DNA of 19,487 nucleotides, taken from an uncultured Candidatus Saccharibacteria bacterium (GTDB lineage Bacteria > Patescibacteriota > Minisyncoccia > Portnoybacterales > GWB1-42-6). Shown one piece after another: positions 2 through 19,487 of the stretch. The notes beneath the pieces were generated by a model. That model saw only the letters and a program-made list of their open reading frames with translations, ran no database searches and was not told where the DNA came from. Both the position numbers and the translations under genes were made by a program. Positions within the stretch are counted from its first letter, which is position 1. Each line of letters starts with the position of its first letter. Location: the NCBI GenBank assembly GCA_964579775.1, contig CAZOGP010000004.1, positions 4,752 through 24,238 on the forward strand. Reading direction: 5' to 3'.

Positions 2-922
2 ACGCTGGAATGGGACGGCGCGGCGCTGAAAGAAAGTATAATTGACGGCGGCACGCCGGGGCGGCAAAATAGTGTTTCAAATTCCGCTGGCGCCCCCAGC
101 GCCGCGCCGAGCGACTCCCCTGCTCCCACGAACGTGGCCACGGCCTCGGCGACCCCCGCGCCGGGGTATCAGTACTCCCAGAAAATTTTTATCAACGAAT
201 TTATGCCTTGGCCGGAGACAGGAGCTAAAGAATGGGTGGAAATTATTAATTTAGACGACACCGCGATTAATCTCTCCGGCTGGCAAATTGATGATGCCAA
301 TGCTTCAACCTCGGCCCAAGCGCTGCCGGCCGACACGGTTATCGCGCCGGGTGAATTTTTAGTTATCTCTTTCAATAAAAATGTTTTAAATAATAACGAC
401 GGCGATAAAGTCCGGCTACTGTGGCCGGACGACCAAGCGGTACACGCGGTCTTATACAAGAAAGCCACCCAGAGCCAAGCCGCGGCCAAATTTGATAACG
501 GCTGGCTCTGGACCAACCGGCCAACGCCAGGCCTTGCCAACAAAAAATCTTCCGTTGGGAACAACGAGGAACTCTCTTTGGCGAACGCGTCAGTTAACAA
601 TGCCCAAGTCGTGACAACCGAAGAGACAGTAACATCCCCGGCCAGCGCGCCAGCGCGAACCGCAACGCAACCAACCAGAACACCAACACCCGTGGCCGTG
701 GCCGCCGCGACTCCGACAAACACCGCGTCAAGCAATGCCGAGGCGCTGTCTAATAATATAAACCTGACCGCCGCGGCTGGCGAACCACTCGCGAAAAATT
801 TTAATTCAAACCCGTTTTTAGCGCTTGGCGGTGTAGTTTTGCTAGCCGCGCTGGCCGCCGGCGGACTGATTTATTTCCGCCGATTATCTAAGCCTGTTGA
901 CGATTCCAGTTTTGACGATTAA
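2..922 (+). CDS. Lamin-tail-domain (LTD) surface protein, 5'-partial, with Thr/Pro/Ala-rich linker and C-terminal membrane anchor
   Basis: The frame is open from nt 2 with no stop. The track ORF starts at GTG 134 and has no signal peptide, so the gene probably continues upstream. FINEFMPWPETGAKEWVEIINL..INLSGWQIDD..PGEFLVI..NNNDGDKVRLLWPDD fits the LTD pattern. A low-complexity TPTPVAVAAATPT linker is followed by a hydrophobic C-terminus, FLALGGVVLLAALAAGGLIYFRRL. Confidence 0.7.
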   Translation, partial: TLEWDGAALKESIIDGGTPGRQNSVSNSAGAPSAAPSDSPAPTNVATASATPAPGYQYSQKIFINEFMPWPETGAKEWVEIINLDDTAINLSGWQIDDANASTSAQALPADTVIAPGEFLVISFNKNVLNNNDGDKVRLLWPDDQAVHAVLYKKATQSQAAAKFDNGWLWTNRPTPGLANKKSSVGNNEELSLANASVNNAQVVTTEETVTSPASAPARTATQPTRTPTPVAVAAATPTNTASSNAEALSNNINLTAAAGEPLAKNFNSNPFLALGGVVLLAALAAGGLIYFRRLSKPVDDSSFDD

Positions 923-7337: not shown

Positions 7338-8714
7338 TTATTTACTGTAGATCCTTTCTTTAATTAAATTGATCTCTTGTTGGAGGGTTTCGTTTTTTTC
7401 AACCTCTTTGGTTAATTTGTCGCAAGCGTACATAACGGTGGTGTGGTCCCGACCCCCTAATTTTTCACCAATAAAAGGAAAGGATTTTTTTAATTCTTCG
7501 CGCATCAAATACATCGCCACCTGACGAGGATAGACGACTTCCTTTCGGCGGCAGCGGTTTATCAGTTCGCTGGTGTTTATATCATAAAATTCAGCCACGG
7601 CCTGGATGATGTTTTTGTGGTTAGTTAGTTTTTTCGGGGAATTAATGATGTCATTCAGCGCCTTGGCCACCATGGTCAGGTCGGGATTGGCAGAGAGAGA
7701 GCCATTTGAGGCAATAATACGGTTTAGCGCCCCCTCAAGCTCTCGGATATTTTTTTTAACATTAACCGCGACGTAGTTTAAGATTTCGTCGGAGACGGTA
7801 AGCTTTTTTTCGGTGAGCTTGCTCTTTAAAATCGCCAAACGGGTTTCCATGTCTGGTTGGGAAATATCAGCGATCATTCCTCCCTCGAAGCGCGACCGCA
7901 ATCTTTCTTCCAGGGTGGCGATAGCCTTGGGGGGCCGGTCGGAACTTAACACGATCTGCTTATTTTTTTGGTACAGGAAGTTAAAGGTATGGAAAAATTC
8001 TTCCTGGGTTTTTTCCTTTCCGGACAAAAACTGAACATCATCAATGATCAGAACGTCGACTTGCCGGTAACTTTCTTTAAATTCTTCAATTTTGCCGTCG
8101 TGTAGGGAGCTGACGAGCTCGGAGGTGAATTTTTCCGAGCTGACGTATTTTACTTTCTTCTTCTTTTTATATTTTTCAACAATTTCGTTGCCCATGGCTT
8201 GCAGCAGGTGTGTCTTTCCCAGCCCCACGCCGCCGTAGATAAAAAGGGGGTTATAGGCTTCGCCGGGGCTATTGACCACTGCTTTGGCGGCCGCTTGCGC
8301 CAGCTCATTAAACGAGCCGACGATAAAATTACTAAAGGTATATTTTGGATTAAGGTTGGTTTCTTTATCAACCTCGAATTCTTTAAAGGATTGAGTTTGA
8401 TAGGCCAAGCTTTCTTTTTTGGCGGCACCCTTAATCTGTCCCTCGGTCATAACCAATGAAGCGGAGGGGCTGGCGCTGATGATGAACCGTAGTTCTTTAA
8501 TATCGCCGGAAATATTCCGAAGAGATCTTAAAATAAGCTTGTTATATTTATTCTCCAACCACTCCTTACTGAAGCCATTGGGTACGCCAATAATCGCTAT
8601 TCCGTCTTTGTTTTTTAGAATAAAGGTGTCGCGGAACCAGGTAATGAAATTAGCCCGCGAAATATTCAATTCCACTTCTCCGAGGGCTGTTTGCCAGAGT
8701 TGTTCGTTGGTCAT
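7338..8714 (-). CDS. dnaA: Chromosomal replication initiator DnaA
   Basis: Walker A GGVGLGKTHLL, LIIDDVQFL, sensor region and C-terminal DNA-binding KSFPFIGEKLGGRDHTTVMYACDK. The ATG at 8714 gives the typical N-terminus MTNEQLWQTALGEV. An upstream in-frame ATG at 8795 would add 27 Pro/Ala-rich residues and seems less likely. Confidence 0.92.
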   Translation of the reverse strand: MTNEQLWQTALGEVELNISRANFITWFRDTFILKNKDGIAIIGVPNGFSKEWLENKYNKLILRSLRNISGDIKELRFIISASPSASLVMTEGQIKGAAKKESLAYQTQSFKEFEVDKETNLNPKYTFSNFIVGSFNELAQAAAKAVVNSPGEAYNPLFIYGGVGLGKTHLLQAMGNEIVEKYKKKKKVKYVSSEKFTSELVSSLHDGKIEEFKESYRQVDVLIIDDVQFLSGKEKTQEEFFHTFNFLYQKNKQIVLSSDRPPKAIATLEERLRSRFEGGMIADISQPDMETRLAILKSKLTEKKLTVSDEILNYVAVNVKKNIRELEGALNRIIASNGSLSANPDLTMVAKALNDIINSPKKLTNHKNIIQAVAEFYDINTSELINRCRRKEVVYPRQVAMYLMREELKKSFPFIGEKLGGRDHTTVMYACDKLTKEVEKNETLQQEINLIKERIYSK

Positions 8715-8850
8715 ATTATTGATAGCCCCTTGCGCCGGCCCAGGCTGGGCTGGTGTAGGGGCGAAAACAGGGTTGGTCCTTCCTAGTAGTAGCATAGCAC
8801 ATCGTCAAGTTTAAAAAAATATAAAGAAAATAGCAATAAAAAGAGAAATT

Positions 8851-8962: not shown

Positions 8963-9097
8963 ATGAGCGTCACTTATCAGCCGAAAAAAAGAAAAAGGAA
9001 GAAAACCCACGGGTTTTTGGTCCGACAAAGGACCTCCTATGGCCGTCGGGTCCTGGCGAAAAGAAGGAGAAAGCAGAGGAGAAAATTATCGGTTTAA
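8963..9097 (+). CDS. rpmH: 50S ribosomal protein L34
   Basis: Not in the ORF track because it is short. Manual translation gives [44 protein letters not shown], which carries the L34 signature TYQP.KRKR...HGF..R. It sits directly upstream of rnpA. Confidence 0.9.
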
Positions 9098-9102
9098 GTT
9101 TT

Positions 9103-9444
9103 ATGCTTCCAAAGACCAATCGGTTAAACAAACAAAAAGATTTTGACGACGTTTTTAAGCGCGGCAAAATTAAGCAAGACGGCTTTTTGGCGGTGAGAGT
9201 AAAATTAAACCAGCAAAAATTTTCTCGGTTTGGTTTTATTGTGAGCTCCCGCGCGGCTAAAAGCGCGGTTACGCGGAATCGCTTGAGGCGGCAACTAAGT
9301 GAAATTATCAGGCTGAAGCTGCCAGAAATTAAGAGCGGTTTCAATGTTGTCTTAACGGTTAAGTCCAGTTTAGCGGGAGCGGAGCATCGGGAAATGGAAA
9401 AAATTTTACTAGGCTTATTGGCCAAGCTTGAATTATATGGTTAA
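9103..9444 (+). CDS. rnpA: Ribonuclease P protein component
   Basis: 113 aa and basic. LPKTNRLNKQKDFDDVFKRGK...AVTRNRLRRQLSE carries the RNR motif region. It occupies the conserved rpmH-rnpA position. Confidence 0.88.
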   Translation: MLPKTNRLNKQKDFDDVFKRGKIKQDGFLAVRVKLNQQKFSRFGFIVSSRAAKSAVTRNRLRRQLSEIIRLKLPEIKSGFNVVLTVKSSLAGAEHREMEKILLGLLAKLELYG

Positions 9445-13820: not shown

Positions 13821-15213
13821 TCTGCAAACAAACTGGCAATTCGTAATTTTGTTTATCGGCCTTTTGGCCGCGGCTATTATCAACTGGAGAAAACCAGGTT
13901 GCGGCGCCTGGCTGATATTTTTTTTGTCGCCGCTTTATCTGTTAAAAATCGGCAATTGGCCCTTAACTGTCCTGGAGGCGCTGATGTGGTTGTTTATAGG
14001 AGTCTGGCTGGTAAGAAAAGTAAAAAATAGTTGTCATCCCGGGCTTGACCCGGGATCCAGGCCCTGGATTCCCGCCCTTCTTGCATCAGGATCTATGACT
14101 TGCGCGGGAATGACAAGAGGGGTTATTACCAAAGTAATCAAGAACGATATTTTTCTACCACCTTTACTGATTTTAGCTGGCGTTTTTATCTCCGCCGTCT
14201 TTTCGCCCGACCCGAAAACTGGCTTGGGTATTTTAAAATCCTGGTTCTTGGCCCCGATGATTTTTGCTTTTATTCTAAGAGATATTTTTGAGGGCGGTGG
14301 TTTAAAAGAAATGTTTTCGGCGCTATTTGTTTCTTCGGCCGCGGTGGCGGCAATAAGTTTTGTTTATTTGGCGTCCGGACATTTGACTTTTGACGGCCGT
14401 TTAACGGCTTTTTATCTGTCTCCCAATCACCTGGCTATGTATCTGGCGCCGGGGTTGCTGGTCGGCTTGGCTTTATGGTCGGACGCGAAAAAAACACACC
14501 AAAGAATCTTATTGTTTATTGGTTATTGTTTATTGGCTACTGTTTTATACGCCACTTATTCTTTTGGCGCCTGGCTTGGTCTGGCCGCGGCCGCGGTTTT
14601 AATTTTATTTTATCTTTGGCGTTTAAAATTAATGAGCCGTCGTCAATTGTTAATGGTTATTTGTTTATCGGTAATTTTATTTATATTTGTGCTTGGCCAG
14701 CAGTTGTTCGACGTAAATAACGATAAGCTATCTAATCTATTCTCCTCTCCCCGCTCCTCCTGGCAATCGCGCCTGATGGTCTGGCAGGCGGCTACCCAGA
14801 TCTTAAAAGACCACGGGTTTCTAGGGATCGGGCCGGGGCTGTTCCAGAACTATTATTTGGAGTACCAGCAATATTTTTCTGTGCCGTATTTGGAGTGGGC
14901 CGTGCCCCAGCCCCATAATTTATTTTTGGCCTGGTGGCTGCAAGCGGGCCTGGCAGGGTTGGTTGGTTTCTTTTGGCTACTGATAGTTTTTTTCCGACGG
15001 GGATTCAAGACACTAAAAAAACCCTCCTTCGTCCCACTAGGCGGGACTTCGGAGGGCAAGCAAAATCACCTCTGGATCATTATTTTAATGGCCGTAATGA
15101 CGTATTTTTTGGTCCACGGTCTAGTCGATACTACTTTCTGGAAAAATGACCTGGCGCTGATCTGGTGGGTTATTGTATTTTTAGGCTCCAGAGCAGGCCG
15201 TCGCGTTTATTGA
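13810..15213 (+). CDS. O-antigen ligase family (Wzy_C domain) membrane protein, paralog 2, carrying an intragenic palindromic repeat
   Basis: Polytopic membrane protein. Motifs are YSFGAWLGLAAAAVLILF, GIGPGLFQNYY and PHNLFLAWWLQAGLAGLVGFFWLL. It overlaps the preceding gene by 11 nt. Confidence 0.8.
   Translation: MFYSLQTNWQFVILFIGLLAAAIINWRKPGCGAWLIFFLSPLYLLKIGNWPLTVLEALMWLFIGVWLVRKVKNSCHPGLDPGSRPWIPALLASGSMTCAGMTRGVITKVIKNDIFLPPLLILAGVFISAVFSPDPKTGLGILKSWFLAPMIFAFILRDIFEGGGLKEMFSALFVSSAAVAAISFVYLASGHLTFDGRLTAFYLSPNHLAMYLAPGLLVGLALWSDAKKTHQRILLFIGYCLLATVLYATYSFGAWLGLAAAAVLILFYLWRLKLMSRRQLLMVICLSVILFIFVLGQQLFDVNNDKLSNLFSSPRSSWQSRLMVWQAATQILKDHGFLGIGPGLFQNYYLEYQQYFSVPYLEWAVPQPHNLFLAWWLQAGLAGLVGFFWLLIVFFRRGFKTLKKPSFVPLGGTSEGKQNHLWIIILMAVMTYFLVHGLVDTTFWKNDLALIWWVIVFLGSRAGRRVY
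14033..14116. repeat. Palindromic repeat family copy C, inside CDS 13810-15213
   Basis: TGTCATCCCGGGCTTGACCCGGGATCCAG (14033-14061) and CTGGATTCCCGC...GCGGGAATGACA (14065-14116). The region is translated as CHPGLDPGSRPWIPALLASGSMTCAGMT. Confidence 0.8.
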
Positions 15214-16366
15214 CGAAAAATAAGTAATCTTCTTTGGGCGAAAGAAATAATTCCTGGGCGTCAAAGCCGACCTGATCGGAAGAACCCAGGATTTTTGTTT
15301 TGGCGTTGGTTTCCAGGTTTATTTTGTAGAAATCATCCGCCAGGATGACCAGGCCCTTATAATAGTCATCCGGCCAGACGGCATTAGCCGATAGCTCTTG
15401 CGGCAGGGCGCAGAAGATCGTCCGGTCGTCGCTTGCCCAGACGCATTTATCCGCCAGGCCGCTAAGCTTTAAGTCTTTGGCATTGGCGCCGATGCCGTCC
15501 GTTAATGACAGGCCTGGGTTTTGGCCGCGGTCGTTAGTCGAGGAGAAAAGTATTTTATCGGCCCGAGGGGACCATTTAACACTTAAACCAAAGAGGTCGC
15601 TGAGCGCCCGGGAAAAGTCGCCGGTGGTTGAATTCAGAGCGTAAAGCAGGCCTTGCGCCAGGCCGCTGGGGGGCTGGCGCAGAGAGATTTTTTCTTTAAT
15701 GGGCCACTCCACGATCAAATTATCCAGGCGGGTCTTAAAAATATTTGCCCAACCGGAACCATCGGGGTTGGCCACACTGATATTGTGCTGGCCGGTGGCA
15801 GAGTCAATAAAATGATAGGCGATCTTTTTGCTGTCGGGCGACCAGGCCACCGAACCCATTTTTTCATTGAGGAGCGAAGACTGATTGTTGGTGTAGTCGT
15901 AAAAATATTTTTTAAGTTGATTGTTATCAGAAAAAAATCCAATGACCTTGGTTTTATCCGGCGACCAGAGCGCTTTGATCAAGCCGTTCAATGTCGTGGA
16001 CGAGATTTTTTTAAGGCTGGCGCCCAGGAAATCAGATTCCCAGACATTGCCGTTGGCGCGGGTGAAATACTTAACGGTTTTGCCGTCTTCTCCAATGGTT
16101 GGCGCCAGGACCGGCTCTTTGCTGATAGCTTTAATTTTTGAGGCCGTTTGGCCTGGGCTGATGCTTTGGTTGGCGCCGCTTCCCGGCAAGAACGATGAAC
16201 CGCCAGTAGTTTGTCCCGCGCCGGGTGAGGCGGAGGGCAGGCTGCCGCCCTGCTCCGTTTCTCCGCCCGGAGCGGTTGATTTAAAAAAGAAATTATAAAC
16301 TAACAGCGAGCCCAGCGATAGGACCAATAAGATTGAGGCGATGATGAGGATTTTTTTAGTGTTCAT
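15170..16366 (-). CDS. Membrane-anchored TolB-like beta-propeller (PD40/WD40-like repeat) protein
   Basis: N-terminal TM KILIIASILLVLSLGSLLVYNFFF, then a Gly/Ser/Pro-rich linker. Repeated WSPD-type blades are ALWSPDKTKVIGF, VAWSPDSKKIAYHF, VKWSPRADKILFSS and CVWASDDRTIFCA. Confidence 0.75.
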   Translation of the reverse strand: MNTKKILIIASILLVLSLGSLLVYNFFFKSTAPGGETEQGGSLPSASPGAGQTTGGSSFLPGSGANQSISPGQTASKIKAISKEPVLAPTIGEDGKTVKYFTRANGNVWESDFLGASLKKISSTTLNGLIKALWSPDKTKVIGFFSDNNQLKKYFYDYTNNQSSLLNEKMGSVAWSPDSKKIAYHFIDSATGQHNISVANPDGSGWANIFKTRLDNLIVEWPIKEKISLRQPPSGLAQGLLYALNSTTGDFSRALSDLFGLSVKWSPRADKILFSSTNDRGQNPGLSLTDGIGANAKDLKLSGLADKCVWASDDRTIFCALPQELSANAVWPDDYYKGLVILADDFYKINLETNAKTKILGSSDQVGFDAQELFLSPKEDYLFFVNKRDGLLWSLKIQ

Positions 16367-16407
16367 AGGTTTTGTTAATCATTTTTATTTATAATAATAG
16401 CATATTT

Positions 16408-17076
16408 TTATTGGCAGGACGTACTGTCTGGGACGGACCTGGCAATACAGTTGGCCACCCCAAAAAAAAGCGGGCAAGCGTCTTTTGTTTTGTAGCAATT
16501 ATTTTTATCACACCAGCAAGTTTTAATTTTTTCCGTAGCAGGCGGCGGCCCCTGGCAATAGCAGCTATTGTTTTCAGCGGTAAATACGATGGGATTTGGC
16601 GCACACTTAGCGGTGCAGGCCTCTATGGTGGTTTGTTTAGTCAAGTAGGTTTGAGGCGTGACTGACGGTGATGCCGGCGCGGCGACATTGCCGAGCGGAG
16701 AAATTGATGGCGATAAATTCGTCAAACTCGGGTCAATGGTGGCCAAGATCAGCCAGGAACAGAGCAGCAAGGCGATGCCCATCAGCGCGCCAACGATCCA
16801 GTCTTTAGCCTTTTGCGTAGTCCCAACGGACGGGGCCAGCATGTAATTTATCCCGCCCCAAACAATCGCGCCCACCGCCAGGAACCCGGCCAGGGATAAA
16901 CCGAAAATGAATAGATACCGGACATAGACGCCGGGGTCGGAGACGATTGGGGAGGTCATGCCGGGTAGACTAATTTCAACTTTGTAGGCGGCGTGTCCAA
17001 TAGTCGCGTAGAAAAGTAAAGATAAAGCCTCGAAGATAGTTAGAAAAATTTTTTTATGATTTGAAAATAAATTCAT
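16408..17076 (-). CDS. Exported VirB2/TrbC-like two-helix pilin module fused to a 99-aa, 10-cysteine C-terminal domain
   Basis: Signal peptide with GHA|A. Hydrophobic hairpin YLFIFGLSLAGFLAVGAIVWGGINYM - APSVGTTQKAKDW - IVGALMGIALLLCSWLILATI. The C-terminus holds 10 Cys (EACTAKC..SCYC..TCWC..NNC..DAC..ANC..STC). Confidence 0.65.
   Translation of the reverse strand: MNLFSNHKKIFLTIFEALSLLFYATIGHAAYKVEISLPGMTSPIVSDPGVYVRYLFIFGLSLAGFLAVGAIVWGGINYMLAPSVGTTQKAKDWIVGALMGIALLLCSWLILATIDPSLTNLSPSISPLGNVAAPASPSVTPQTYLTKQTTIEACTAKCAPNPIVFTAENNSCYCQGPPPATEKIKTCWCDKNNCYKTKDACPLFFGVANCIARSVPDSTSCQ
16709..16968. repeat. 260-bp direct repeat, copy 1 (100% identical to 17673-17932)
   Basis: Base-by-base comparison shows identity from GGCGATAAATTCG... 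to ...CATGCCGGGTAG. The flanks diverge immediately on both sides. Confidence 0.95.
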
Positions 17077-17107
17077 TTTGGTTTTGGCCTCGTAGTTGAG
17101 CGATTAC

Positions 17108-17159
17108 CTGGATTCCCGCCGGAGTTTACCCCGTACTTGATACGGGGCGGGAATGACAG
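17108..17159. repeat. Palindromic repeat family copy D, intercistronic between the two pilin-like genes
   Basis: CTGGATTCCCGCCGGAGTTTACCCCGTACTTGATACGGGGCGGGAATGACAG forms a nested hairpin (ATTCCCGCC/GGCGGGAAT outer, CCCCGTA/TACGGGG inner). It is near-identical to 12665-12717. Confidence 0.8.
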
Positions 17160-17170
17160 AAGGCCTTACT

Positions 17171-18055
17171 TTAGACGCAATTGGCTTTAACACTGTAATG
17201 GATGTGGTCGGTGTGGCTGGCGCAGCTTTTGCTTTTTGAAGCGTTTTGTCCCCCGCCGGCGCGGCAGTATTGGGGAAATCCGGCGTAGAATAGCTGGTCA
17301 ACGCATTTGTCTTGACTTAACGTTTGCATAACTTGCTGTTTTTGAGAGTCGTTTAAATTAGAAACCCGGATATCGGCCGCTCTCCCCGTGCAGTGGGTGG
17401 ATGAGCCGCAAGCGGCGCCCGGCACGCAGGTGTCAGTCGCAGAACAACCGTGGCTGCCTGTTGTTTCAGTTATTGTAACTTCAACCGGAAGCGAACCAAG
17501 ATCTTTTACCAGGGTGTTGTTTACTTGTCCGGTTTGAATGTCTTGGCAAATCTTGGCGGTTTTGCATTTTATTTCTTGCGCGCCGGTTATGGGCGGGGTG
17601 ACAGCTCCCTCTGTTAGGCCGGAATCCGGGGGGCTTGGAGGTTCGGGGACGGTTACGATTTCTAATTGGGTGGGCGATAAATTCGTCAAACTCGGGTCAA
17701 TGGTGGCCAAGATCAGCCAGGAACAGAGCAGCAAGGCGATGCCCATCAGCGCGCCAACGATCCAGTCTTTAGCCTTTTGCGTAGTCCCAACGGACGGGGC
17801 CAGCATGTAATTTATCCCGCCCCAAACAATCGCGCCCACCGCCAGGAACCCGGCCAGGGATAAACCGAAAATGAATAGATACCGGACATAGACGCCGGGG
17901 TCGGAGACGATTGGGGAGGTCATGCCGGGTAGTTTTATCTCTAGCGTATAGGCCAGGGCACTTGGAGCGATAAAAAAAATAACAGATAATAGGCTTAAGA
18001 AAATAAATTTTAATTTTAGAAGAGTCTTTAGCAAGAAGGTTTTACTTAATTTCAA
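17171..18055 (-). CDS. Exported VirB2/TrbC-like pilin module fused to a Hedgehog/DD-peptidase-fold (LAS, peptidase M15-like) zinc hydrolase domain
   Basis: Signal peptide with ALA|Y and the same 87-aa two-helix module as 16408-17076, then a Pro-rich linker PEPPSPPDSG. The C-terminal domain has VEVTITETTGSHG...STHCTGRAADIRV (S-x-H-x-x-G-x-A-x-D, i.e. H-x6-D) and DHIHYSVKA (H-x-H). The start is TTG at 18055, with no in-frame ATG before residue 45. Confidence 0.7.
   Translation of the reverse strand: MKLSKTFLLKTLLKLKFIFLSLLSVIFFIAPSALAYTLEIKLPGMTSPIVSDPGVYVRYLFIFGLSLAGFLAVGAIVWGGINYMLAPSVGTTQKAKDWIVGALMGIALLLCSWLILATIDPSLTNLSPTQLEIVTVPEPPSPPDSGLTEGAVTPPITGAQEIKCKTAKICQDIQTGQVNNTLVKDLGSLPVEVTITETTGSHGCSATDTCVPGAACGSSTHCTGRAADIRVSNLNDSQKQQVMQTLSQDKCVDQLFYAGFPQYCRAGGGQNASKSKSCASHTDHIHYSVKANCV
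17673..17932. repeat. 260-bp direct repeat, copy 2 (100% identical to 16709-16968)
   Basis: See copy 1. The offset between copies is exactly 964 nt. Confidence 0.95.
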
Positions 18056-18788
18056 CGCTTAAATTAGCCGTAGATTGCTGCAGTTGGTCGGCTTTATTTT
18101 GAATAAAGAGCGACAGGTCTTTAAAAATAGACGCCGATAAATTGCCGGCGGGAATTTTTATTGTCAGCTGGTTGGGATTTTTTTCATCAAGCGTGTCTAA
18201 AATTTGTCTGTCTATCGCCCAGCTGAAAGCTAAGTCGGCGATATTTTGAGTGTTGAAAAACAGAGGCTCGGCCAGCAGGGTCAGGTTCTGGCCGGTGGCG
18301 GCGATTAGCGAGTCTTGCGCGGCATAGTTGCTGTTGGTAGTTTTAAATAAGATCTGGGGGCTGGCGATCTTTATGGTTAAAAATCCCCGCCAGATAATCT
18401 TTTCTTGGCTGTCTAATATTTGAGATTCTATTTCATGGTCGTCCCCGCCCCACTTGGTGGTTCGGAACTGAAACGACGACCTGCCTATGCCTTGCGCCGA
18501 ATACATAATTTCGTTATCCAGGAGCCAGCGATAATAGAGCGCGTCGGGATTTTGGGAGAGTTTTTTGGTCGGCAAAACCGCCACTTTTATGGTGCTGCCG
18601 CGCGAAGGCAGAGCCTTGCCTTCATAATCCAGCGGCACATAAGAATTGCTGGACCAGGTAAGCAGGAAATCATTGTCAACGGCGCGGGCGACGGGAGGCG
18701 CTGCCAGCGCGAAATAAAGTCCGGCCACAATGAGAAGGATTATTAATAAAGAGTTAACAGAGGTAGATTTTTTTAATAGATTGAACAT
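18042..18788 (-). CDS. Exported hypothetical protein with two tandem beta-rich domains
   Basis: Signal/anchor SLLIILLIVAGLYFALAAPPVARA|VD. The halves share the pattern [ST]xIxVxxxP...[YF]xWxxDxxI (STIKVAVLP..YYRWLLDNEI versus QNLTLLAEP..AFSWAIDRQI). The stop overlaps the next gene's start by 14 nt. Confidence 0.6.
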   Translation of the reverse strand: MFNLLKKSTSVNSLLIILLIVAGLYFALAAPPVARAVDNDFLLTWSSNSYVPLDYEGKALPSRGSTIKVAVLPTKKLSQNPDALYYRWLLDNEIMYSAQGIGRSSFQFRTTKWGGDDHEIESQILDSQEKIIWRGFLTIKIASPQILFKTTNSNYAAQDSLIAATGQNLTLLAEPLFFNTQNIADLAFSWAIDRQILDTLDEKNPNQLTIKIPAGNLSASIFKDLSLFIQNKADQLQQSTANLSVEIK

Positions 18789-18803
18789 TGTTGTGAGATT
18801 TCT

Positions 18804-18940
18804 CCCTCTCTTAAGTTAAGAGAGGGTTAGGGTGAGTTATGCTCATTGAGTCGCTGAAGTCAAACTTCAAAGGCAACCCGAAGTCTGACTTCAGCGACCG
18901 GCTATAACTCCTCCCCACCTCCTCTTAATTTAAGAGGAGG
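18804..18940. repeat. Composite multi-hairpin intergenic element (copy 2 of 2; see 940-1079)
   Basis: CCCTCTCTTAA-g-TTAAGAGAGGG (18804-18826, followed by TTAGGGTGAG). A 19-bp stem with one mismatch, GTCGCTGAAGTCAAACTTC...GAAGTCTGACTTCAGCGAC (18850-18898). CCTCCTCTTAA-t-TTAAGAGGAGG (18918-18940). Confidence 0.6.
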
Positions 18941-18964
18941 AGAAGCTTGCGTTGGCTCCCCTTT

Positions 18965-19444
18965 TTATATTTGTTGATTTTTTAACATTTTATTGGCCAT
19001 CGCTAGACCGCCGGGGTTTTTCATGGCGTCATAGACTTGGGCCGCCGCCTTCTTTTTAATGTAAGAGTAGACGACTATGCCGATATTGCTGGGCAGGATG
19101 CCTAAAGATACAACGTCTATAATTTTGGCCACGATAAAAGTAAGTATCGGGTCAAGCTTGGGATTATAACCTTTTTGCCACCAGCCAAAAATCAGGCCGG
19201 CCAGGGTTTCAGTGAATAGATTAATTATGGGAATAAGTCCGATTAAGTCAAACAAGGCGGCTAAACACAGCATCTCCCAGGGAAAAGAAGCGGGCTCGGG
19301 CGGAGCGATGGGCCGCTCGGACGACTCGGTTTGCCTGGCGCGGTCTCCTTCTGTCTGCTGGGCTTGTCGGGTTTTATCTCGCTCGGACCGTTGGGCTTGC
19401 CGGCTGCGGTCCTCTTCAAATTGTTGTTGGTAGTTGTCGGGCAT
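18965..19444 (-). CDS. Hypothetical membrane protein with charged 11-aa repeat N-terminus
   Basis: The N-terminus has three repeats, RSRQAQRSERD / KTRQAQQTEGD / RARQTESSERP. Hydrophobic segments follow: MLCLAALFDLIGLIPIINLF, LAGLIFGWW and IIDVVSLGILPSNIGIVVYSYI. The ATG at 19444 is preferred over the track's TTG at 19468. Confidence 0.55.
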   Translation of the reverse strand: MPDNYQQQFEEDRSRQAQRSERDKTRQAQQTEGDRARQTESSERPIAPPEPASFPWEMLCLAALFDLIGLIPIINLFTETLAGLIFGWWQKGYNPKLDPILTFIVAKIIDVVSLGILPSNIGIVVYSYIKKKAAAQVYDAMKNPGGLAMANKMLKNQQI

Positions 19445-19487
19445 GAGTTCATTTAAACATTTAAACAATTTAACAACTTAACAAAAT

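Follow-up and report, generated by a model that had tools for sequence, protein, structure and literature searches.

Two adjacent genes and their T4SS neighborhood

Two adjacent genes on the minus strand of the 19,487-nt window (the whole stretch of DNA analyzed here), ORF B and ORF A, encode proteins with the same N-terminal module and different C-terminal tails. In the direction of transcription, the genes and features of this region are as follows.

18965..19468, minus strand: conserved small membrane protein of 167 aa (159 aa in the public call), directly after virB4, 61% identical to the syntenic gene of locus L007
18042..18788, minus strand: conserved 248-aa secreted protein, directly upstream of ORF B, 45% identical to the syntenic gene of L007 and present in all related loci
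17171..18055, minus strand: ORF B, 294 aa (287 aa if TTG 18034 is the start), built of signal peptide, pilin module, Pro/Ser linker, and a predicted LAS/M15-type peptidase tail
17951..18055, minus strand: predicted signal peptide of ORF B, aa 1-35, cut between ...PSALA and YTLEIK, outside the repeat
17673..17932, minus strand: copy 1 of the pilin-module repeat, ORF B aa 42-127, LPGMTSP...TIDPSLTNLS; helix 1 spans 17804-17881, the predicted cytoplasmic loop 17762-17803, and helix 2 17699-17761
17609..17671, minus strand: Pro/Ser-rich linker of ORF B, aa 129-149, assigned by composition, of low pLDDT and without secondary structure
17174..17608, minus strand: tail domain of ORF B, aa 150-294, predicted LAS/M15-type zinc peptidase fold with 10 cysteines
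17077..17170, minus strand: spacer separating the two pilin-module genes, predicted to fold into a stable RNA hairpin (MFE -32.1 kcal/mol, z = -3.0)
16408..17076, minus strand: ORF A, 222 aa, identical to P0016, built of signal peptide, pilin module, linker, and an orphan 10-Cys tail
16709..16968, minus strand: copy 2 of the pilin-module repeat, ORF A aa 37-122
16627-16707, minus strand: Pro/Ser/Thr linker of ORF A, preceding the tail domain
16411..16626, minus strand: putative disulfide-rich tail domain of ORF A, aa 151-222, 10 Cys
15170..16366, minus strand: conserved TolB-like beta-propeller protein of 398 aa, directly downstream of ORF A, with weak TolB/PD40 matches

ORF A and ORF B are 75% identical across 138 aa (BLASTP) and contain an exact 260-nt direct repeat (16709-16968 in ORF A, 17673-17932 in ORF B), whose 100% identity is far beyond chance. 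The flanks of the repeat, encoding the signal-peptide and tail regions, are unrelated. The first-pass annotation had described adjacent paralogs with a common module and different tails, each tail holding 10 cysteines, and both points stood: exactly 10 were counted in the 99-aa tail of ORF A and in the 166-aa tail of ORF B, with one extra within helix 2. A Kyte-Doolittle scan placed two hydrophobic helices in ORF A (aa 54-79 and 94-114), separated by a 14-aa loop, LAPSVGTTQKAKDW, of net charge +1. The AlphaFold2 model of ORF B (pLDDT 80) comprised a signal helix (5-33), a hairpin (H53-84/H92-119), and then an alpha/beta domain. The proposed signal segment and two-helix hairpin with a short basic loop were seen in hydropathy, the structural model, and the family alignment. 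The signal peptide of ORF B aligns with those of homologs and coincides with a hydrophobic segment in the hydropathy scan, and we infer that it is cleaved; the corresponding region of ORF A is weakly hydrophobic with a Glu inside. Translation of ORF B starts at TTG 18055 or at TTG 18034, the latter giving MLKTLLKLK..., as in homologs, while the public gene call (P0001) begins at Met45 within the module and so loses the signal peptide. An NCBIfam search returned nothing meaningful for either protein. No Rfam family was found in the window, including the hairpin spacer at 17077-17170, which is not a consensus terminator, and promoter and terminator scans of 15000-19487 gave counts at chance level.

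An exact repeat, or a module-tail fusion, could be the product of a collapsed or chimeric metagenome assembly; the repeat is exact over 260 nt, and each of the short-read contigs L002, L003, and L009-L011 ends within it. Assembly error, which the first-pass annotation had named as a possible refutation, is nevertheless extremely improbable. Independent assemblies from several samples (L001-L003 and L009-L011) span both junction types at 99.8 to 100% identity, the same architecture occurs in >30 protein clusters and on long contigs of 63, 106, and 420 kb, and full-length orthologs are carried on the 63-kb and 420-kb contigs. Near-identity of module pairs also appears to be a recurrent biological feature, since the pairs in L007 and L004 are 99.6% and 92.5% identical, respectively.

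The first-pass annotation saw no virB4 gene in the window and suggested a search outside it; there, a VirB4-like ATPase gene terminates ~52 nt beyond the window (NF045971, score 380 bits, cut-off 325). Contig L009 matches window positions 17792-19487 at 100% identity and then runs into a 605-aa VirB4. Seven related loci (L004, L005, L006, L007, L009, L012, and L013) share the order virB4, ~160-aa gene, ~248-aa gene, pilin-module genes, beta-propeller gene, and on to dnaA, with genes for PrgI/VirB3 and TrsD/TraC-like proteins further upstream in L004, L005, L006, L007, L012, and L013. In L004-L007, L012, and L013 the beta-propeller gene follows the pilin-module genes whatever the tail type. The window itself contains dnaA (7338-8795), together with a gene for a class A PBP and envelope polysaccharide genes. 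The T4SS and VirB2-like pilin genes of Patescibacteria have been reported near dnaA (PMC12102498). An origin of the locus in a phage or conjugative element was rejected, as synteny with dnaA, yidC, and rnpA is kept across genomes.

Family assignment of the shared module

Direct matches to PF18895 (T4SS_pilin) covered aa 61-112 of ORF A (23.5 bits, E = 6e-5) and aa 66-117 of ORF B (22.9 bits, E = 9e-5), both below the gathering score of 26.6 bits. Stronger evidence came from the family to which the module belongs. A module profile recovered 31,927 protein clusters, and among 99 extended relatives 80 matched PF18895 (best E 1e-27) and four matched TrbC/VirB2 PF04956 (best E 7e-8). A search of a 5.8-billion-protein database linked ORF B (E = 5e-9) to one homolog above the PF18895 cut-off (P0040, 37.3 bits). 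Plain short pilins of 121-148 aa, likewise above the cut-off, belong to the same family. A PF04956 search found no match to ORF A or ORF B at E <= 1. HHalign brought the module profile into register with Agrobacterium VirB2 over 59 columns (pairwise E = 0.0012, probability only 19%), weakly aligning both helices with VirB2 residues 53-113 (7.3 bits by HMMER), an alignment that could partly mirror transmembrane composition. Module and F-pilin TraA had no similarity by HHalign, and the module profile had no significant match to PDB sequences, the pKpQIL pilin 7jsv (E = 5.8) being noise. With the full-length ORF B model, Foldseek against the PDB retrieved generic helical proteins and histidine kinases and no pilin, because Foldseek discriminates simple hairpins poorly; LysECD7 ranked fourth (E = 0.7).

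Family-level evidence thus supports the assignment of ORF A and ORF B as modular VirB2-like pilins of PF18895. The central proposal of the first-pass annotation, a hairpin of VirB2/T4SS_pilin type reused as the N-terminal module for differing Cys-rich tails, was supported by the family profiles.

The published VirB2-like pilins of Patescibacteria (PF18895; Quinonero-Coronel et al. 2025, PMC12102498; Wang et al. 2023, PMC10633639) are of the same family by profile and, like ORF A and ORF B, combine a signal peptide with a two-helix hairpin, occur as adjacent paralogs, and are encoded beside an MPF-FATA-like virB4 near dnaA. Their arrays are described as small and very divergent paralogs, with an average identity of 25% and a maximum of 54% (PMC12102498, PMC10633639), unlike the 100% identical module and the long tails found here. 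No description of tails or enzyme fusions on these pilins was found in the accessible literature on Patescibacteria T4SSs. ORF A and ORF B also resemble the classical VirB2/TrbC pilins (PF04956; Agrobacterium VirB2, RP4 TrbC) in their long signal peptide, two hydrophobic helices, and short loop, but the mature classical proteins measure ~70-120 aa and lack a folded tail. Classical VirB2/TrbC pilins are often cyclized or C-terminally trimmed.

Tail domains and their exchange between genomes

The first-pass annotation had treated the ORF B tail as a Cys-rich domain. Its 10 cysteines are real, yet motifs and structure searches indicate rather a LAS/M15-type peptidase. H221-x6-D228 (within S-x-H-x-x-G-x-A-x-D) and H284-I-H286 (H-x-H) are invariant across 14-15 ORF B orthologs. 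The tail scored 19.7 bits against Peptidase_M15_3, below the cut-off of 23.2, and all 14 of 14 orthologs matched this family below the cut-off (best E 4e-5); some also matched VanY, HH_signal, Extensin-like_C, or M15_4, all LAS-type families. A profile match in the PDB aligned the tail with Shh-N on S-x-H-x-x-G-R-A-V-D, the Shh zinc site. The domain model was of high quality (pLDDT 88.6, pTM 0.84), and nearly all of its top 50 Foldseek matches in the PDB were LAS proteins, including MepA, Hedgehog N-domains, VldE, 1lbu, Ply500, and LysECD7 (best E 6e-3, TM-scores 0.3-0.5). In BFVD, matches began at E = 2e-3 and included several M15A peptidases along with tape-measure proteins and cell-wall hydrolases; the top eight had a probability of 0.99-1.0. 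Neither database gave a Foldseek match at E <= 1e-3. The tail shares its H-x6-D and H-x-H motifs, and its predicted fold, with LAS metallopeptidases (MepA, VldE, the Streptomyces Zn DD-peptidase, phage M15 endolysins, tape-measure M15A domains, and the Hedgehog N-domain). It differs from LAS metallopeptidases in scoring under every family cut-off and in being joined to a pilin module, and from the matched families in its 10 conserved cysteines and TETTGSHGC motif. Sequence and modeling together predict that the ORF B tail is a LAS/M15-type peptidoglycan peptidase.

The tail of ORF A had just three clusters in the 5.8-billion-protein database. It matched nothing significantly in Pfam (WSC E = 0.22, DUF7434 E = 0.2) or among PDB sequences. 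Its identity to the L004 ortholog (90% aa, 85% nt) is above that of the neighboring genes. The tail probably contains five disulfides, and our guess is that it serves as a binding module.

Such extensions are the rule rather than the exception in this clade. Among 139 single-module relatives the median tail was 152 aa, and just 16 had tails of <=30 aa. The survey returned both extended and plain pilins, and the statement of the first-pass annotation that such proteins end right after helix 2 applies to classical VirB2/TrbC pilins and not to this clade. Because tails are the norm here, ending soon after helix 2 may not define PF18895. In 99 scanned relatives, recognizable tail domains included SLT (13), CHAP (2), and NlpC/P60 (2), and ~80% of tails had no recognizable domain. 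Relatives also carried YkuD, M15_4, or further cysteine-rich types of tail, and in some polypeptides anywhere from 2 to at least 10 modules were fused. ORF A and ORF B had no SLT, CHAP, or NlpC match in Pfam.

Closely related genomes differ in which tail a module carries. As far as the end of the module, L004 and L012 share 98.9% identity; the next ~340 nt are unrelated, after which identity recovers to 94%. These sibling genomes differ by a precise tail replacement at the module end, as the 'swapped cargo' of the first-pass annotation had implied. Plain pilins end at the same TIDPxLxNLSP motif, and in L006 the gene at the pilin-module position has a short tail without a domain. Nucleotide identity between modules was 100%, 99%, and 87-89% within genomes and 62-72% between genomes. 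In three lineages homogenization covers exactly the mature portion of the module and leaves signal peptides and tails different. A degenerate pattern derived from the module found only three loci in a scan of GTDB genomes, a number too small for a census. Together, the alignments show that gene conversion keeps modules identical within a genome and that tails are swapped as cassettes via recombination at the conserved TIDPxLxNLSP module end.

A conserved N-terminus with highly variable C-termini, and the precise cassette replacement between sibling genomes, are also features of polymorphic toxins. In polymorphic toxin systems (CdiA, Rhs, MafB, LXG) the N-terminal trafficking region is conserved and the C-terminal cassettes vary, and both peptidoglycan peptidases and glycosidases belong to the typical antibacterial effectors of the T6SS and the Xanthomonas-type T4SS. 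Recombination at a conserved junction likewise resembles the tail swaps observed here. The module would then be a trafficking domain and the tails toxins, released or delivered against the wall of a host or competitor, their diversification driven by an arms race. We consider this improbable. No small immunity-like ORF lies in the 94-nt gap between ORF B and ORF A or the 41-nt gap between ORF A and the beta-propeller gene, the downstream gene is constant across tail types, and there is no silent or orphan cassette array. Moreover, no conserved cleavage or release motif was identified past the module end, which plain pilins share, and the recognizable tails are wall-remodeling enzymes, including a transpeptidase (YkuD), which is not a toxin type. 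The analogy drawn in the first-pass annotation thus holds for the architecture, a conserved N-terminal part with exchanged C-terminal cassettes, and not for the adjacent immunity gene or the nature of the tails.

YkuD, SLT, and M15 are ordinary wall-maintenance domains, and with the class A PBP and envelope polysaccharide genes in the same window the hairpin might be a generic anchor for remodeling of the cell's own peptidoglycan, its T4SS neighborhood being incidental. This seems very unlikely, given that the site downstream of virB4 is kept in 7/7 loci examined, that tail swaps between sibling strains are unexpected for such enzymes, and that the anchor family is defined as T4SS pilins, found near virB4 in 1,135 assemblies (PMC12102498).

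Proposed role at the secretion machine

We moderately favor the interpretation that ORF A and ORF B are modular T4SS pilins that place wall-active or wall-binding tails at the secretion machine. The organism is a Portnoybacteria-like member of Parcubacteria, and the locus is a chromosomal T4SS cluster of the Patescibacteria type near the replication origin, resembling Gram-positive conjugation machinery. Counted downstream from virB4, ORF B is the third gene and ORF A the fourth, both oriented like virB4. In the topology we propose, a Sec signal peptide would be cut off, the two-helix hairpin would enter the membrane with its short basic loop on the cytoplasmic side, and the C-terminal tail on its Pro/Ser linker would end outside the cell. 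Outward-facing tails are expected because SLT, YkuD, CHAP, NlpC/P60, and M15_4 domains act on peptidoglycan, outside the membrane, and the 10 cysteines per tail point in the same direction. The putative zinc peptidase of ORF B would cut peptide stems or cross-links of peptidoglycan. The pilin module would dock at, or enter, the T4SS like the plain pilins of the family, so that wall-active and wall-binding domains may sit where the T4SS crosses peptidoglycan, either its own or that of a host. The term hydrolase fails to cover all tails, as YkuD tails make cross-links rather than cuts.

The pilin-tail fusion would stand in for the separate VirB1-type hydrolase of other T4SSs. In Gram-positive systems these hydrolases (PrgK of pCF10, TraG of pIP501, CD419/TrsG; PMC12102498) are, as predicted for ORF B, membrane-tethered extracytoplasmic wall enzymes encoded in the T4SS cluster, and their catalytic domains (SLT, CHAP, and NlpC/P60) also occur on relatives of ORF A and ORF B. 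Unlike them, ORF A and ORF B have a pilin-family hairpin, not one transmembrane helix, as their anchor; the tail of ORF B is a predicted LAS/M15 rather than an SLT domain, ORF A has no recognizable enzyme, and the tails are swapped between strains. The likeness is one of function rather than membership, since SLT, CHAP, and NlpC are found only in the relatives. Surveys of these genomes seldom find a separate VirB1 hydrolase beside virB4 (PMC12102498), which may be because pilin fusions carry that role.

A less probable arrangement, though a serious one, is that the modules, with or without plain pilins, polymerize into a VirB2-type filament from whose outer surface the tails hang on their linkers. 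Such a filament would present the host wall with heads of several kinds (peptidase, lytic transglycosylase, L,D-transpeptidase, and disulfide-rich binding domains), would cut and perhaps covalently hook into host peptidoglycan, and could be refitted for new hosts when tail cassettes are exchanged at the TIDPxLxNLSP junction. Co-assembly of differently armed subunits would require the modules of a genome to be identical, with gene conversion maintaining compatibility. The exact homogenization of the mature module in three lineages, with differing signal peptides and tails, fits this, as do the plain pilins ending at TIDPxLxNLSP and the short-tailed L006 gene. The C-terminus of F-type pilins is surface-exposed and tolerates fusions, and monoderm bacteria have no outer-membrane channel to keep large subunits out, the one circumstance that would permit pilins of such bulk. 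Reviews already speculate on pili built by Patescibacteria T4SSs (PMC12857230). However, no pilus has been observed on these organisms, and our search of the literature on Patescibacteria T4SSs found no demonstration of any Patescibacteria pilin polymerizing into a T4SS pilus. A domain of 10-18 kDa per subunit is without precedent in VirB2-type pili, polypeptides with 2 to 10 or more modules suit a membrane-embedded oligomer at least equally, and gene conversion between tandem repeats can be neutral.

Modular type IV pilins such as PilB and PilC of Streptococcus sanguinis, with a functional globular domain grafted at the C-terminus of the pilin module, have the same design as ORF A and ORF B. 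Their pilin fold and machinery are unrelated to those of the T4SS, and what they carry are adhesins or lectins rather than wall enzymes. With this locus, the concept of the modular pilin would reach beyond type IV pili to pilins of VirB2 type. The locus also shows one module evolving in concert while its partner domains turn over as cassettes.

A large fraction of uncultivated bacteria are Patescibacteria. In the single species tested, growth on the host requires the T4SS and its pilin genes, yet reviews call the function of this T4SS 'completely unknown'. That many pilin-family genes encode modular proteins with predicted peptidoglycan-cutting or cross-linking domains, their tails exchanged among closely related strains, offers a testable lead on that role. 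The pair of ORF A and ORF B suggests how host-dependent, ultrasmall bacteria may breach cell walls.

Two adjacent genes sharing a pilin module

Two ORFs placed side by side by a first-pass annotation were both found on the minus strand, each encoding a signal peptide, a common pilin module, and a C-terminal tail.

Positions of the paired genes and their repeat
16408-17076, minus strand: ORF A, 222 aa
17171-18055, minus strand: ORF B, 294 aa
16709-16968: repeat copy in ORF A (aa 37-122), equal to 17673-17932 in ORF B (aa 42-127)

The two products were 75% identical over 138 aa, and this likeness lay in one exact 260-nt direct repeat, with sharp divergence on both flanks. The repeat product comprises, in order, LPGMTSPIVSDPGVYVR, helix 1, the loop LAPSVGTTQKAKDW, helix 2, and TIDPSLTNLS. 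The annotated hydropathy layout, loop charge, and cysteine counts held up when recomputed, with 10 cysteines in each tail and one in helix 2. Within 17924-18055, ORF B probably starts at TTG 18055 or TTG 18034; its public gene call, P0001 (250 aa), starts at Met45 within the conserved LPGM motif of the module and hence omits the signal peptide. The region was reproduced at 99.8-100% identity in independent assemblies from other samples, and short-read contigs mostly ended within the 260-nt repeat, as expected if the repeat is true; that the arrangement is an assembly artifact is scarcely credible. ORF B and ORF A are separated by a 94-nt spacer (17077-17170, minus strand), for which a stable hairpin of -32.1 kcal/mol was predicted (z = -3.0; one of 200 shuffled sequences was as stable), with neither a U-tract nor an Rfam match. 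The equivalent spacer was just 6-7 nt in the related loci L004 and L007.

Direct Pfam scores of the two modules against T4SS_pilin (PF18895), the family proposed in the first-pass annotation, were 23.5 and 22.9 bits, both just under the cut-off of 26.6, but evidence at the family level was stronger and upheld the assignment. PF18895 was matched by 80 of 99 tailed relatives (best E = 1e-27), and a search of 5.8 billion sequences linked ORF B (E = 5e-9) to P0040, a relative that exceeds the cut-off. At E <= 1e-3, a profile of the module retrieved 31,927 representative clusters, of which 11,718 remained at E <= 1e-10. Plain pilins of 121-148 aa belong to the same family and end at the same TIDPxLxNL motif, with five of the ten tested passing the Pfam cut-off. 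Membership of the module in PF18895 is thus well supported. The likeness to TrbC/VirB2 proposed alongside it fared less well, homology to classical VirB2 being plausible from sequence comparison but short of proof: TrbC/VirB2 (PF04956) was matched by 4 of the 99 tailed relatives (best E = 7e-8), and the module profile aligned in register with both helices of Agrobacterium VirB2 (59 columns, 32% identity), although weakly (HHalign probability 19%, HMMER 7.3 bits). No similarity to the F-pilin TraA was found, and no solved pilin structure matched significantly.

Tails of ORF A, ORF B, and their relatives

In ORF A, the tail has a 27-aa linker and then a 72-aa stretch containing 10 cysteines. The tail gave no significant match in the searches made and was present in three clusters only. 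Relative to its orthologue in L004, the tail was 90% identical at the amino acid level, against 76% for the module and only 50% for the neighboring 248-aa protein, and the tail domain is therefore under strong constraint.

For aa 150-294, the last ~145 residues of ORF B, a confident alpha/beta domain model was obtained (pLDDT 88.6, pTM 0.84), and nearly all of the best 50 Foldseek matches in the PDB were LAS-fold proteins, including MepA, Hedgehog N-domains, VldE, the Streptomyces Zn DD-peptidase, Ply500, and LysECD7. Peptidase_M15_3 was matched by 14 of 14 orthologues, all under the cut-off, and some also matched VanY, Hedgehog N-terminal, Extensin-like_C, or M15_4. When PDB sequences were searched by profile, S-T-H-C-T-G-R-A-A-D aligned with the Sonic hedgehog zinc site; H221-x6-D228 and H284-x-H286 were invariant, and a viral library returned M15A peptidases, tape-measure proteins, and cell-wall hydrolases. 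No match is strong by itself, yet the evidence is unanimous, and we call the ORF B tail a predicted LAS/M15-type peptidoglycan peptidase.

Closely related modules carried SLT/lysozyme-like, YkuD L,D-transpeptidase, CHAP, NlpC/P60, and M15_4 tails, as well as several unrelated cysteine-rich domains, coiled coils, and short Pro/Thr tails. All recognizable tail domains act on peptidoglycan, which, apart from topology arguments, supports outward-facing tails. Among 139 single-module relatives, a sample skewed toward the closest kin of the two window proteins, median tail length was 152 aa and just 16 tails were of 30 aa or less. Another 40 proteins had 2 to 10 or more tandem modules per polypeptide. 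Relatives of this kind from outside the window, among them P0042, P0043, P0044, P0065, and P0075, are arrays of covalently joined pilin modules that carry a terminal enzyme; in P0042, four modules precede an SLT lytic transglycosylase. A recurrent cysteine-rich tail of ~180 aa ending in GGHFHCNF (P0039, P0090, and L007 9077-9982) had no Pfam match and may represent a second metal-binding, H-x-H-type enzyme family on the same module.

A type IV secretion locus beside dnaA

The window is chromosomal and adjoins the replication origin.

Further features of the window
7338-8795: dnaA
15170-16366, minus strand: TolB/PD40-like beta-propeller, 398 aa, N-terminal hydrophobic segment
18042-18788, minus strand: 248-aa secreted protein, between virB4 and the pilin-module genes in related loci
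18965-19468, minus strand: ~160-aa protein (167 aa in the window) with hydrophobic helices, between virB4 and the pilin-module genes

Other genes were dnaN and those encoding DciA, YidC, Jag/KhpB, a class A PBP, RuvC, YebC, a Wzx flippase, and two Wzy-like proteins. A 113-aa ORF at 9103-9444 (plus strand) is probably rnpA (RNase P protein), judged from synteny with L005, L007, and L012, and therefore the overlapping 151-aa ORF at 8970-9425 (minus strand) is probably spurious. At the left edge, 134-922 (plus strand) encodes a secreted protein in which a Lamin Tail Domain (PF00932, E = 2e-15) is combined with a mucin-like C terminus of low complexity.

The earlier statement that no VirB4 gene is visible in the window holds, as the window ends just before virB4. 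L009, a contig overlapping this end, was 100% identical to 17792-19487 and then ran on into the gene for a 605-aa VirB4-like ATPase (NF045971, 380 bits against a cut-off of 325), with its stop codon ~52 nt past the window end. Joining this extension to the window gave the order virB4, 167-aa membrane protein, 248-aa secreted protein, ORF B, ORF A, beta-propeller, Wzy/Wzx genes, jag, yidC, the probable rnpA, and dnaA. This gene order recurred in L004, L005, L006, L007 (Ca. Portnoybacteria, VirB4 88% identical), L012, and L013, with PrgI/VirB3 and TrsD/TraC-like genes upstream of virB4 in all six. Between prgI and the TraC-like gene, L004 (5655-6041) and L012 (4723-5109) held a 128-aa gene with 23S_rRNA_IVP/bAvd-like matches, missing from the equivalent interval of L005. 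In every related locus, regardless of tail type, the beta-propeller gene came after the pilin-module genes. The 248-aa and ~160-aa proteins are conserved, and their genes invariably lay between virB4 and those for the pilin modules; they had no matches in Pfam or NCBIfam and are probably uncharacterized T4SS components.

The T4SS of Patescibacteria has an MPF-FATA-like VirB4 with VirB2-like pilin genes nearby, often lies near dnaA, and lacks a relaxase (Quinonero-Coronel et al. 2025, PMC12102498). The window cluster is this system, and a housekeeping role for the tailed proteins is very unlikely.

Homogenized modules, exchanged tails, and a proposed role

Modules from one genome grouped together, irrespective of position or tail type. 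Nucleotide identity between modules within a genome was 100% in the window, 99% in L007, and 87-89% in L004 and L012, against 62-72% between genomes, and concerted evolution is confined to the mature module. That restriction, together with the existence of plain pilins, would suit a filament decorated by the tails, but no pilus has been observed, and we regard this main alternative as possible rather than probable.

The sibling assemblies L004 and L012 were 98.9% identical up to the last module codon of the second pilin-module gene, differed thereafter by ~340 unrelated nt encoding a tail of 99 aa in one and 65 aa in the other, and then resumed at 94% identity. At the module end, one tail cassette has thus been replaced cleanly by another (L004 11324-11661 versus L012 10381-10734). 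Such swaps are also consistent with toxins or effectors, but immunity genes are lacking and this reading seems improbable.

VirB2-like pilins in Patescibacteria, arrays of their genes, and T4SS-linked wall hydrolases are already known. A literature search returned no description of a pilin module fused to wall-active and cysteine-rich domains, of strict within-genome module identity, or of strains exchanging tail cassettes. The tailed architecture is so widespread that database curators may have come across it, and therefore we do not rate it as categorically new.

Beyond the observed family assignment, T4SS operon context, LAS motifs, and cassette behavior, we propose the following mechanism. 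After Sec export, the hairpin would insert into the membrane as VirB2 does, its two termini outside, leaving the tail displayed on a flexible linker. The module would then dock at the T4SS or be taken up by it. We lean toward a T4SS-tethered, VirB1-like role, in which the tail would act on peptidoglycan to open a path for the T4SS or its filament, or to engage the wall of the host.
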